Position numbers and translations under genes: made by a program. From contig JAJPHT010000027.1 of NCBI GenBank assembly GCA_021325135.1, positions 32,001-96,000 on the forward strand: a stretch of DNA of 64,000 nt, read 5' to 3'. This DNA is from Pseudomonadota bacterium. GTDB taxonomy: Archaea > Thermoplasmatota > SW-10-69-26 > JACQPN01 > JAJPHT01. The notes under the pieces were generated by a model that did not search any database, had not been told where the DNA came from, and worked only from the letters and a program-made list of their open reading frames with translations. Shown here piece after piece: positions 40,232 to 49,168 of this stretch (position 1 is the stretch's first letter; the number at the start of each line of letters is the position of its first letter).

Positions 40232-40585
40232 ATGGGTGTCAAGAAGAAGCTGAAGGCTCGAGACATCGAGCAGCTGGAGAACACGAGCATCGCGTCCGCC
40301 CTCGTCGGGAACGAGATTCTCGACGTGAACAGGCTCGTCAACGTGGACATCATCAAGACGACCTGTCAGCAGGACTCGGTCTGCGAAGAGACGGTGGAGT
40401 GCGTCGTGGTCATCACGTGCGGCTTCACGAGCTGCGTCAACACCTGCTGCCACAACTGCAGCGTCGGCACGTGCTTCTGCACCGCGGCCTGCACGCTGGT
40501 GAGCTGCGACGCCGGCACGGTCTGCGCCTGCACCAAGGGCGACTCGTGCAACGACGGCTCGGTGTGCGTCGCCCCCACCGGATAG
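40232..40585 (+). CDS. RiPP precursor A1 (117 aa, 16 Cys)
   Basis: Leader KKKLKARDIEQLENTSIAS; Cys/Thr/Ser-dense core; GAGGT SD. Confidence 0.88.
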   Translation: MGVKKKLKARDIEQLENTSIASALVGNEILDVNRLVNVDIIKTTCQQDSVCEETVECVVVITCGFTSCVNTCCHNCSVGTCFCTAACTLVSCDAGTVCACTKGDSCNDGSVCVAPTG

Positions 40586-40667
40586 ACCTGCCCCCACGAC
40601 GTGAGAAGCATGCAGACACCCTCCTCGCCCGCACGCTCATCCGCTCCCCTTCCGGAGGACGCCCTCC

Positions 40668-41573
40668 TTGCCTGAGATCGGCGTCCTCGACTTCGGCCTC
40701 CACGAGCCTGGCGACGCCCAGCGCTCGCTGCGCAACACCATCGCCCTCGCCCAGGGCGTCGAGCCCCTGGGCTTCTCCTCCTTCTGGGTGACGGAGCACC
40801 ACCAGGAGGGCTACGCGCAGGCCAGCCCCTCCGTGCTCGCCGCCGCCGTCGCCGCCTCCACGCGCCACATCCAGGTGGGCGTGGGCGGCGTCCTCCTGCC
40901 CTACCACCCCCCCTACCGCGTCGCCGGCGACTTCCGCCTCCTCTCGGCCCTCTACCCCGGGCGCATCCACCTGGGCGTGGGCCGCGGACCCGGCGCCGGG
41001 CCCGAGGTCATCCGCGAGCTCGTCCCCGAGGGCACGCCGGTCTCCGACCCCGCCTTCTTCGAGGCCCACGCGCGACGCCTCCTGGAGCTTCTCCACGACG
41101 AGGACCCCGCCGTGCGCGTGCGCCCCGAAGCGGCCGCGCCCCCCATGTGGGTCCTCGGGCGCAGCCCCGAGGCCGCGGCCTTCGCCGGGCGCCTGGGCGT
41201 CGGCTACGCCTACCCCGAGTTCATCATCCCCGACGACCCCGCCGGCTCCCGCACGGGGCGCTGCTTCGACGCGTACCGCCGCGCGTTCACGCCGCGCCCA
41301 GGCTCCGAGAAGCCCCGCGCCTGCCTGGGCATCACGGCGTACTGCGCCGCGCCCGGCGAGCCCGTGCCCGCGGCGTCCGACGCCAACGTGCACGGCACCG
41401 CCGCCCAGTGCCGCGCGGACATCCGCGAGCGCATCGAGCGCCTCGACCTCGACCTCCTCCTGCTGGGCACGCTGCGCAGCCTCTCCCTGGAGAGGCAGGT
41501 GGCCAACCTCGGCCGCCTCGCCCGGGCCCTCCGTCTCCCCCAGAACCTCCCCCCGCAACGGGTGACCCCATGA
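40668..41573 (+). CDS. Luciferase-like (LLM) flavin-dependent oxidoreductase 1
   Basis: FWVTEHH, GVGGVLLP, PGRIHLGVGRG. Confidence 0.88.
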   Translation: MPEIGVLDFGLHEPGDAQRSLRNTIALAQGVEPLGFSSFWVTEHHQEGYAQASPSVLAAAVAASTRHIQVGVGGVLLPYHPPYRVAGDFRLLSALYPGRIHLGVGRGPGAGPEVIRELVPEGTPVSDPAFFEAHARRLLELLHDEDPAVRVRPEAAAPPMWVLGRSPEAAAFAGRLGVGYAYPEFIIPDDPAGSRTGRCFDAYRRAFTPRPGSEKPRACLGITAYCAAPGEPVPAASDANVHGTAAQCRADIRERIERLDLDLLLLGTLRSLSLERQVANLGRLARALRLPQNLPPQRVTP

Positions 41574-42709
41574 CTGCCGCCACCACCTCCGCACCCGCAC
41601 GCCGAAACGCGACCCTGGACAGCCTGCCCGACATCCTCGTGAAGCGCGGGCTCGTCGACCGCGCGCGCTTCGTGGACAGCTACGTCTCCATCGAGGACCG
41701 CTCGCGCCGCAACCGCAACTTCAAGGTCGTCGTGCCCGACGGCCCCAAGCTCCTCGTGAAGCAGGGCTCGGAGGGGGCCAACGGAAGCTGGGCCGCCGTC
41801 GAGAGCGAGGCGCGCCTGCTGCGCACCGCCGCCACCGACCCCGCGTTCGCCTCCATCCGCTGGTTCTCGCCCAAGATCGTCGACTACGACGAGGAGAACC
41901 AGATCCTCGCCACCGAGCTGATCCAGCCCGCGACGACGCTCACCAAGTACCACGTGAACCTGGGCAACATCCACTTCCCCTCCGAGGCCGGCGACACGCT
42001 GGGCCGCCTCGTCGCCTCGTGGCACAACGCCGCGCGCAAGGCGTGGAAGGGGGGCCGCCTGGAGTACGTCCACCGCTCGCAGCCCTTCGTCGCGCCCACG
42101 CTGGAGCAGCTTCGCCGCGCGCCCGCCCAGCCCACCGACGTCCGCTCGTCGTACCTCAAGCTCGTCAAGGAGATCGTGCCCTACGAGCGCCACGTCGCGC
42201 AGATCGCCGAGTGGGAGAAGGAGCACAAGGGCGTCGGCCACGGCGACATCCGCTGGGACAACGTCCTCATCACCGAGGGCGGCGGCCGCGGCGGCAACAT
42301 GAACTTCCGCCTCATCGACTGGGAGATGGCCTACGTGGGCGACCCCGCGTGGGACGTCGCGTGCTACCTGGGCGAGTACCTGCGCCTCTGGTTCATGAGC
42401 ACGCTGGGGCGGCAGGTCACCAGCGTCGCGGAGGTGGAGTCCAAGGCGAAGTTCAAGCTCGCCGACACGCACGAGTCCATCGCCGCCTTCCTCGACAGCT
42501 ACAGCCGGAAGTCGGAGATCGCCGCAGGCAAGAGGCCCAACCTCGTGCCGCGCCTCCACGCCTACCTCCCCTACGTCGTGCTGCTCATCTGCTACGAGTC
42601 GCTCCAGCGCCAGGCCCAGTTCCCGCCGGTCTGCAAGGTCGCCATCGAGATGGCCCGCGACGCGATCGAGGACCCCCAGACGAAGCACCACGAGTGGTTC
42701 GGCCTTTGA
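41570..42709 (+). CDS. APH-family kinase (LanK-like Ser/Thr kinase)
   Basis: LLVKQ, HGDIRWDNVLI, LIDWE, GDPAWDVA; ATGA coupling to the upstream gene. Confidence 0.88.
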   Translation: MTAATTSAPARRNATLDSLPDILVKRGLVDRARFVDSYVSIEDRSRRNRNFKVVVPDGPKLLVKQGSEGANGSWAAVESEARLLRTAATDPAFASIRWFSPKIVDYDEENQILATELIQPATTLTKYHVNLGNIHFPSEAGDTLGRLVASWHNAARKAWKGGRLEYVHRSQPFVAPTLEQLRRAPAQPTDVRSSYLKLVKEIVPYERHVAQIAEWEKEHKGVGHGDIRWDNVLITEGGGRGGNMNFRLIDWEMAYVGDPAWDVACYLGEYLRLWFMSTLGRQVTSVAEVESKAKFKLADTHESIAAFLDSYSRKSEIAAGKRPNLVPRLHAYLPYVVLLICYESLQRQAQFPPVCKVAIEMARDAIEDPQTKHHEWFGL

Positions 42710-42719
42710 GGTGATTGTC

Positions 42720-47456: not shown

Positions 47457-47477
47457 GTTGACCGGAGGAATGACCAC

Positions 47478-47762
47478 ATGAAGCGAAGGCTGAGCGCGAA
47501 GGACGTGGAGTCGCTGGAGAACACGAGCATCGGAGGCGTGCTGGCGATTCTGGACACGGGCGTGACCAACGTCACGACCTTCATCTGCGTCGCCAACACG
47601 ACGCCCATCTGCGAGCACGGCACCGGCGTCGGGTGCCAGATCGACTCGATCTGCCACGAGACTGCGGAGTGCACCATCGTCGTCTGCACGAACTCATGCC
47701 ACGACACCTGCTGCGCCTACGACAGCACGGGCGCGATCCGGCCCGCGCTGACGTCGCCGTAG
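47478..47762 (+). CDS. RiPP precursor B4 (94 aa, 9 Cys)
   Basis: Shared leader; C-terminal core nearly identical to B3. Confidence 0.88.
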   Translation: MKRRLSAKDVESLENTSIGGVLAILDTGVTNVTTFICVANTTPICEHGTGVGCQIDSICHETAECTIVVCTNSCHDTCCAYDSTGAIRPALTSP

Positions 47763-47791
47763 GACGTCCGGAGCACGCCGAGGGGTGACGA

Positions 47792-49168
47792 TTGGAGATC
47801 GAGCGCGTGGAACTCGGGCTGGCCTCGCGGCTGGCGTTCCGGGACCTGGTCTACACGTCGGACCGGGGCATTCCCCTCGTGGGGTGCCCCGCCGTCCACC
47901 GCTACCTGGAGGTGGACCAGGACACCATCCACGGCATCCGGGCCCTCCAGTCGACGGCCACCATCGGCGAGGCCGAGAGCCGCATCCTCGCGGAGACGGG
48001 CGAGGAGGTCGACCTCGTCTACCTCGCCAACGTCCTCCTGGACCGCGGCTTCATCGCCACCGTGGACGGCGAGGAGGTGGGGGCCGACCTGGTGAAGAAG
48101 ACGCCCTCGCTCCTCACCCGCGTCCCCCCCGAGCGCGTCGCGTTCCTCCGCAACCCCGTCTTCGTGGCCGCGGTCGTGGGCCTCACCGCCTTCGCCATGC
48201 TCCTCCTCGCGACGGAGCCCACGCTGCGCCCCCGGCGCGAGGACCTCTTCCTCCTCGACAATCCGCTGGAATCGTTCCTGCTGAGCTTCGGGACCCTCCT
48301 TCTGCTCGCGGGGCTCCACGAGCTTTCCCACTACTTCATGGCGTGGAGCTACGGCGTCCGCTCCTCGTTCAGCCTGTCCCACCGGTTCTACGTCATCGTC
48401 ATGCAGACGAACGTGACCAACGTCTGGACGCTCCCGCGCCGCCAGCGCATCGCCGTCTTCCTGGCGGGCATCGGGTTCAACCTCGTGGTCCTCAGCGCGG
48501 CCGTCGTGGCGCTGGCCGTCTCCGACGCGGGCTTCCATCAGCTCTCCTTCACCCAGGAGGCCGTCCTGCGCTGGATCGCCTACCTCAGCTGGATCCCCGT
48601 CATGTTCCAGTTCTTCGTCTTCGCGCGCACGGACTTCTACTACGTCCTCATGACGCTCGTGGGGGAGCGCAACCTCACGGCGGACGCGCGCGCCTACCTC
48701 CGGTTCCTCGCGGGGCGCCTGTGGCGCTCCATCCGCTCGCGCGAGCGCCGCGCCTGCCCCCACTGCCAGCGCGCCGGCATCCCGGAGGACCCGTTCTGCT
48801 ACGGCTGCAAGCGGCCGCTGCCGGTGTCGGACCCCAACCTCTACCCCTTCACGTACAAGAGCCAGTGGCGGCTCCTCGTCTTCTCGGTCGTCCTCTTCCT
48901 GGGCACCATCCTGGGCACGATGTTCTTCGTGTTCTTCGTGCTCAGCAGCATGCCCAAGCTCCTCCTCTCGGGCGCCTTCGTGACGATGTACGGCTATCGC
49001 ACGGGCCACTGGACGCAGATGGCGGAGGGGCTCCTCGTCGTCGCCATCGTGGGCTTCCAGGGCGCGTTCATGGCGCGCTCCATGGGCGGCAAGGTCAAGG
49101 GCTGGATCGTGGGCGCGCGCAAGCGCTGGCAGGACCGCCGCGCAGGCAAGGCTCGCCAACAATCGTGA
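47792..49168 (+). CDS. M50-like intramembrane metallopeptidase with RRE/PqqD-like N-terminus and Zn ribbon
   Basis: LHELSH within a TM segment, LAG..FN, ARTDFYY, CPHC..CYGC; N-terminal strand/helix pattern ending LLDRGFI. Confidence 0.8.
   Translation: MEIERVELGLASRLAFRDLVYTSDRGIPLVGCPAVHRYLEVDQDTIHGIRALQSTATIGEAESRILAETGEEVDLVYLANVLLDRGFIATVDGEEVGADLVKKTPSLLTRVPPERVAFLRNPVFVAAVVGLTAFAMLLLATEPTLRPRREDLFLLDNPLESFLLSFGTLLLLAGLHELSHYFMAWSYGVRSSFSLSHRFYVIVMQTNVTNVWTLPRRQRIAVFLAGIGFNLVVLSAAVVALAVSDAGFHQLSFTQEAVLRWIAYLSWIPVMFQFFVFARTDFYYVLMTLVGERNLTADARAYLRFLAGRLWRSIRSRERRACPHCQRAGIPEDPFCYGCKRPLPVSDPNLYPFTYKSQWRLLVFSVVLFLGTILGTMFFVFFVLSSMPKLLLSGAFVTMYGYRTGHWTQMAEGLLVVAIVGFQGAFMARSMGGKVKGWIVGARKRWQDRRAGKARQQS

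Follow-up and report, generated by a model that had tools for sequence, protein, structure and literature searches.

A candidate class Vb lanthipeptide gene cluster with six precursors in a soil Thermoplasmatota archaeon

A stretch of 64,000 nucleotides (positions 32,001 to 96,000 of contig JAJPHT010000027.1, assembly GCA_021325135.1; hereafter the window) was analyzed for the gene cluster at window positions 40232 to 49168. The cluster is a member of lanthipeptide class Vb by its gene content, from which the chemistry is predicted, and it very likely encodes a class Vb-type pathway of a soil Thermoplasmatota archaeon. A first-pass annotation of the window had proposed a class V-type lanthipeptide cluster in an archaeon, and Pfam profiles together with intact catalytic residues bear this out for a non-halophilic host. 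The search for APH, HopA1, LANC_like and luciferase-like domains that it had suggested recovered PF01636, PF17914, PF05147 and two luciferase-like monooxygenases (LLMs), so that the run of LLM, APH kinase, HopA1-type lyase and LanC genes, the second LLM gene and the peptidase gene are all in place (with a weak match for the M50 peptidase). Each of the six small open reading frames (ORFs) matches the proposed common leader (LxA[KR]D[IV]ExLENTSI, 6/6). The annotation was right about the genes of the cluster; it gave the LLMs and the peptidase no roles and overlooked the presence of four paralogous clusters in the genome.

Gene content and class assignment

Based on the ORF list and the sequence, the genes form a single co-oriented run on the plus strand from 40232 to 50618:

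40232..40585, +, precursor A1, 117 aa, 16 Cys; GAGG 8 nt upstream
40668..41573, +, LLM1, MsnO8-group (flavin mononucleotide (FMN)-type) LLM, probable tailoring oxygenase; TIGR03558, PDB 4us5
41570..42709, +, LanK, APH-fold Ser/Thr kinase; PF01636
42711..43727, +, LanY, HopA1-type phospho-Ser/Thr lyase; PF17914 E 1e-35, PDB 9dk1_B lyase E 5e-10
43724..45040, +, stand-alone LanC cyclase (LANC_like); PF05147 E 6e-47
45127..45486, +, precursor A2, closely paralogous to A1, 119 aa, 16 Cys
45551..46522, +, LLM2, MsnO8-group, 36% identity to LLM1; TIGR03558
46519..46725, +, precursor A3, 68 aa, 4 Cys
46816..47100, +, precursor A4, 94 aa, 9 Cys
47178..47456, +, precursor A5, 92 aa, 9 Cys
47478..47762, +, precursor A6, 94 aa, 9 Cys
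47792..49168, +, M50 (site-2) intramembrane metallopeptidase fused to a RiPP (peptide made by the ribosome and modified after translation) recognition element (RRE); PF02163 weak, daptide peptidase model weak, RRE fold at residues ~1-95
49168..50618, +, tandem array of five small paralogues, each with a signal peptide and 6 Cys; cluster membership uncertain

The junctions between LLM1, LanK, LanY and LanC measure -4, +1 and -4 nt, the 3' end of LLM2 overlaps the start of A3, and the start of the first of the five small paralogues overlaps the stop of the M50 gene.

The kinase and the lyase are both stand-alone proteins with their catalytic residues, as in class V. In LanK the residues K64, E80, H224, D226, N231 and D250 are intact (ATP lysine, glutamate, HGD..N loop and DWE motif). 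LanY keeps R169, K200, R210 and Y217 at a spacing of 31, 10 and 7 residues, against 32, 10 and 7 for R187, K219, R229 and Y236 of CaoY, the first three of which are important by mutagenesis (PMC9486802). The zinc ligands and catalytic histidine of LanC (H225, C288, C339, H340) are intact, and the catalytic residues of all three enzymes are conserved over 33 loci. In the PDB, LanK (weakly, to 9dk1_A) and LanY match only the two chains of a single kinase-lyase complex, 9dk1.

A dedicated LanC, no LanD, LanX or C-terminal aminovinyl-methylcysteine (AviMeCys), and a shared leader followed by Cys/Ser/Thr cores place the cluster in class Vb. Reviews define this class as LanK, LanY and LanC without LanD or LanX (SmoKYC) and name mSmoA as its only member as of 2024 (PMC11186320, PMC12291118); the three-enzyme route is not known to have been characterized outside Streptomyces. 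According to PMC11186320, PMC12291118 and PMC12328550, SmoK, SmoY and SmoC are likewise a stand-alone PF01636 kinase, a PF17914 lyase and a LanC without LanD, LanX or AviMeCys, and mSmoA has three rings. The present cluster differs in its archaeal host, its leader, its six precursors (as many as 16 Cys), its RRE-M50 protein and its two LLMs. The first-pass annotation had regarded the absence of LanD and a methyltransferase as distinctive and as fitting precursors that do not end in Cys. These absences are real, but that of LanD is ordinary because the class Vb layout, with neither LanD nor a methyltransferase, is known and common in bacterial metagenome-assembled genomes (MAGs): among the bacterial MAG loci fetched with the lyase, LanC lies behind the lyase in 18/18 and the kinase in front in 17/18. 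LanD is also absent at sibling loci whose precursors do end in Cys. The LanK-LanY-LanC core without LanD is already known; the mostly archaeal host clade, the leader, the predicted RRE-M50 maturation, the LLM pair and the precursor size are new.

Host and phylogenetic position

The host is a soil Thermoplasmatota archaeon as judged from its genes. Since the assembly contains no 16S rRNA, the taxonomy rests on RadB and the flanking genes. RadB, encoded on this contig, satisfies the archaeal model TIGR02237 and shares 89% identity with that of Thermoplasmata archaeon BP_742, with further identities of 75% and 73% to Thermoplasmatota MAGs, which agrees with the archaeal gene context noted in the first pass. 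The genome measures 3.77 Mb and is 94% complete. The host-like codon usage described earlier was recovered as well, the codon adaptation of the cluster enzyme genes falling between the 26th and 74th percentiles of the host, and in tetranucleotide distance the cluster is at the 67th percentile of the host range. Logan contigs of the probable source soil run, which is not independent of the assembly, cover nearly the whole stretch at a depth of 16-24 with zero differing letters and break at the repeated precursor genes; mine-metagenome runs contributed short pieces only. A chimeric contig is unlikely, and depth, codons and tetranucleotides show no sign of the chimerism with bacterial DNA that the annotation had been wary of.

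The same genome contains four LanK-LanY-LanC clusters and a genome of the same genus contains two. The three sibling clusters (C42:65418-68950, C7:36300-39660 and C50:64350-67670) carry one or two short precursors each and neither an M50 nor an LLM gene. The kinase profile was positive in five of 401 Thermoplasmatota genomes, in two families, and the distribution of the system in this phylum, as seen in these sequences, is patchy.

In a kinase tree based on an exhaustive search, the six kinases of the host genus fall inside a 55-row clade (99 Shimodaira-Hasegawa (SH)-like support, stem 0.51) that is separate from 17 named bacterial kinases, and the clade support reaches 100 in concatenated trees of kinase, lyase and LanC. 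These are quick, unrooted trees without a characterized class V outgroup, in which the root and the donor are not established. Where a host can be named, the clade is mostly archaeal; for the majority of the 55 rows the host is not known. One member is carried by a 259 kb contig on which the housekeeping genes, including archaellin and proteasome, are 59-85% identical to the host genome; several other clade contigs appear archaeal by weaker flank matches only. The same leader together with the three enzymes and the M50 peptidase occurs at ten further loci, with kinase identities of 31-42%. One locus with this gene set (L053:5386-11041) is located on a Frankiales-like soil actinobacterial contig, the flanks being Frankiales-like at 84-90% downstream and at 51% and 76% upstream. 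In the tree this locus is nested within archaeal rows, and the approximately unbiased (AU) test rejects a clade of archaea alone (p-AU 0.021). The distinct archaeal branch postulated by the annotation is confirmed in its distinctness but is not purely archaeal. Transfer of the L053 cluster from archaea to an actinobacterium would be the simplest reading of the unrooted tree and this one contig; the kinase profile found no member of the 55-row clade and one distant match in 29 Frankiales-like MAGs. Overall, the sequences describe a distinct, well-supported, mostly archaeal clade that was previously unreported. Within the wider collection, four loci (L027, L029, L054 and L063) form a clade in which a third Cys of LanC replaces the zinc His (ProcM-like CCG), and a kinase-lyase fusion (P0089) lies on the bacterial side.

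A 2025 survey of 3,451 archaeal genomes found lanthipeptides of class II, in haloarchaea only, read them as a salt-niche adaptation and never mentions class V (PMC12144867). The archaeal class V-type clade contradicts its conclusion. These archalans are archaeal thioether peptides as well, but they are made by a single LanM enzyme with an unrelated dehydratase architecture and are confined to Halobacteria (PMC12144867). The statement of the annotation that known archaeal lanthipeptides are class II from haloarchaea agrees with this and with the other literature searched. A 2025 review finds class V only in actinobacteria, and no class V entry is among the entries listed from the Song 2025 supplement. 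The literature searched, which took in few subscription papers, yielded no report of an archaeal class V lanthipeptide.

Leader, peptidase and predicted products

The M50 protein has the features of a site-2 protease, an HExxH motif (H176-E177-H180) with a downstream Asp (D281) in a membrane domain, and two CxxC pairs, all kept across nine homologues. Its residues 1-95 have a confident predicted fold (pLDDT, the predicted local distance difference test, 94) whose top matches are lasso B1 (Z 8.7, root-mean-square deviation (rmsd) 2.8, 79 aligned residues), TbiB1 (Z 8.1) and PqqD (Z 8.0), with many more RRE-bearing enzymes lower in the list; support for an RRE is moderate because an equally high score, Z 8.6, goes to an unrelated methyltransferase domain. 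A Foldseek search with the whole model gave no match at E <=0.001, the highest probabilities being those of the site-2 proteases 3b4r and 8vjl, and the score against the daptide peptidase model NF041824 (48.9 bits) is far below its cut-off of 300. In daptides, the RRE-fused site-2 protease MpaP removes a leader with the acidic motif ELExMEAP (bioRxiv 10.1101/2023.03.08.531785). Daptide systems share with this cluster the fusion of RRE and intramembrane protease, the several precursors and a motif resembling DIExLE, but lack thioether machinery of this kind. Two distant bacterial loci were among the matches listed in the M50 scan.

The leader has two parts. Across the six frames of the genome there are exactly six copies of the word LENTS, all of them in the cluster. 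The helix D[IV]ExLE was found at every locus with a precursor, including a 99%-complete genome that lacks this peptidase, which makes the kinase its probable reader, as for CaoA. Of the precursors at 11 M50 loci, 25/26 have the adjoining NT[ST], against 0/10 at five loci without M50, and the following 10-mer is hydrophobic at the former (locus mean about +1.5) compared with -0.3 at the latter; no precursor was found at L028. This covariation comprises only two tree-independent contrasts and is not significant, and a Mann-Whitney p of 0.0009 ignores kinship. Co-folding of RRE and leader scored 0.36 against 0.01 for the best control, with a contact agreement between runs of at least 67% and a partner pLDDT of at least 47, which is weak: of the solved pairs 58/80 came up to this mark and of the mismatched pairs 2/110, those at <=0.60 being only seven solved pairs and both mismatches, and the score may be driven by solved RRE-leader complexes. 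By the model and the daptide analogy, it is likely that the RRE grips the leader near NT[ST] and that the membrane active site would cut in the hydrophobic stretch behind it. If true, this would be a new route of leader removal in a lanthipeptide pathway.

Two further homologues were recorded: an RRE-M50 peptidase fused to a kinase in one 858-aa ORF (L061:71-2647, P0025), and a second RRE-M50 homologue in genome G341 (C31:6330-7547), away from that genome's LanK-LanY-LanC cluster.

None of the precursors A1 to A6 (16, 16, 4, 9, 9 and 9 Cys) ends in Cys. Five of the six cores (A1, A2, A4-A6) contain at least as many Ser/Thr as Cys and share a common Ser/Thr-Cys register, while A3 has few Ser/Thr (3, counted from the first Cys region onward). 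Ser/Thr often stand immediately beside Cys, CC doublets occur, and the 16 Cys fall within about 75 residues; to our knowledge, 16 is about twice the ring count of the most heavily cross-linked lanthipeptides. Judged from these sequences, the products are probably polycyclic, part thioether and part disulfide or free thiol. Nisin-like pore formation is unlikely because the cores are acidic, and the predicted role is most likely that of secreted antagonistic or signaling peptides. At L055:15246-15848, L155:6633-7178 and L156:6112-6735 the precursors are 181-207 aa long and contain 18-21 Cys in tandem repeats of 6-10 residues; in some, a conserved follower stands at the C-terminus.

LLM1 scores 192.6 bits against TIGR03558, over the cut-off of 166.95, and matches PDB 4us5 at E 2e-34; LLM2 is slightly under the cut-off (162.9 bits). 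They recur at L056 and L064 in the same subclade and are nearer to those than to the third LLM of the genome, which also contains flavin reductases. Luciferase-like GarO oxidizes methyllanthionine in actagardine, and by this analogy there is about an even chance that the LLMs oxidize selected thioethers to sulfoxides. GarO resembles them as a luciferase-like flavin enzyme of a lanthipeptide cluster, by description and in a class II context.

In the proposed pathway, the kinase would bind the N-terminal leader helix and phosphorylate core Ser/Thr, and the lyase would strip the phosphate to leave dehydroalanine (Dha) or dehydrobutyrine (Dhb), activities assigned by analogy with CaoK and CaoY. 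LanC would add core Cys thiols to give several (methyl)lanthionine rings, as SmoC and NisC do. The two LLMs, possibly paired, might then (with even odds) convert selected thioethers into sulfoxides in a GarO-like manner, and the peptidase, holding the leader near NT[ST], would quite likely free the core at the membrane by a cut in the hydrophobic stretch, as MpaP does. A broader proposal is tentative and somewhat less than evenly probable: a class V lineage may have radiated among the Thermoplasmatota of soils and reached Actinomycetota, a lineage in which both the kinase and an RRE-fused intramembrane protease read a two-part leader and the products are protein-sized polythioether peptides of at least 10 rings, some sulfoxidized by a paired LLM. 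If true, these would be the first archaeal lanthipeptides that are neither from halophiles nor of class II, with heavier cross-linking than in characterized ones. Uncultured soil Thermoplasmatota would gain a peptide chemistry that is repeated and diversified, one genome alone holding four clusters. Since class Vb has one characterized member in the literature searched, six substrates with 4-16 Cys and one enzyme set offer a direct test of its promiscuity and ring limit, and all parts are small enough for testing in E. coli or Haloferax.

Several points weigh against the proposed class Vb pathway or its parts. LanK scores 71.8 bits against the LxmK model NF038156, under the cut-off of 315, and no ABC exporter lies within the cluster. 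LLMs occur at only 3/11 M50 loci, the likeness to GarO is one of description and not of sequence, and the solved MsnO8 belongs to the mensacarcin polyketide pathway and is not known as a sulfoxidase. The likeness to SmoKYC is also descriptive, and the whole scheme is built from genes. The main question is how many Cys become thioethers, ring number and topology not being predictable from sequence. An unlikely but substantial alternative bears on this question, namely mini-proteins bound mainly through disulfides or metal, in which the three enzymes modify few sites. The dense Cys, the CC doublets, the many Ser/Thr flanking Cys, the relatives with tandem Cys repeats and the five secreted 6-Cys peptides directly after the cluster would suit it, but the Ser/Thr number, equal to or above that of Cys, and the register in five cores and a complete dehydratase and cyclase conserved at every locus favor thioethers. 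For the LLMs, the alternative is a LanJC-type reductase like those of lexapeptide, cacaoidin and pristinin, which would convert Dha/Dhb to D-Ala/D-Abu. LanJC/SprOR share the Pfam superfamily of these LLMs and are frequent neighbors of LanK/LanY, and an F420-dependent LLM makes D-amino acids in class Va clusters (PMC9486802, PMC7794033). Both LLMs, however, fit best in the MsnO8 group and only weakly to F420 models, PDB F420 enzymes match at E 1e-8 or worse against 1e-34 for 4us5, and the 94%-complete genome has neither an F420 ligase nor a CofG that exceeds its cut-off, which leaves D-amino acid formation improbable and less likely than sulfoxide formation, other oxygenations making up the rest.

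A class Va or thioamitide pathway supplied in trans with LanD/LanX or YcaO is very improbable. LanK/LanY pairs also serve thioamitides (PMC9486802), the genome holds one YcaO, and a second APH gene is present at locus L056. That YcaO lies in a locus of its own on contig C35, with no YcaO or TfuA in the cluster; the two flavoprotein matches, one UbiX-like and one CoaBC-sized, are on other contigs; no precursor of the cluster has the C-terminal Cys of class Va; and LanC is present, which class Va lacks (PMC12291118). The class Va systems (cacaoidin, lexapeptide, pristinin A3) do share the LanK/LanY dehydratase, the spacing of lyase residues and a luciferase-superfamily gene, but the cluster has no LanD, LanX or methyltransferase, its LLMs are not of F420 type, and its leader lacks the Tyr-17 motif of CaoA. 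That bacterial DNA was mis-assembled or mis-binned into an archaeal MAG is hardly credible. Bin contamination is 5.6% and a near relative of the cluster lies on the Frankiales-like contig; on the other side stand RadB on the same contig, host-like composition, uniform depth, and the presence of the clade in four further Thermoplasmatota genomes as well as on the 259 kb archaellin/proteasome contig.

Neighboring genes and other loci

The five small paralogues share a C-terminal TSTC[IV]NP and may provide immunity or constitute an unrelated family of secreted proteins; they had no homologue among 5.8 billion proteins and no usable Atlas match, and were not seen at related clusters. Sigma70 promoters and T-tail terminators were not found at the cluster with models that are uninformative for an archaeon. 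A small secreted Cys peptide is encoded just upstream (window 38227-38478), followed by a signal-peptide protein with a C-terminal helix-turn-helix domain (window 38496-40013) that may be a membrane-anchored regulator. The YcaO gene of the genome lies behind an RRE/ThiF-like gene (C35:4500-7104) and forms a separate RiPP locus. Positions 1-16000 of the window have a lower GC content (0.60-0.68), are a tetranucleotide outlier (92nd-96th percentile) and probably represent an island.

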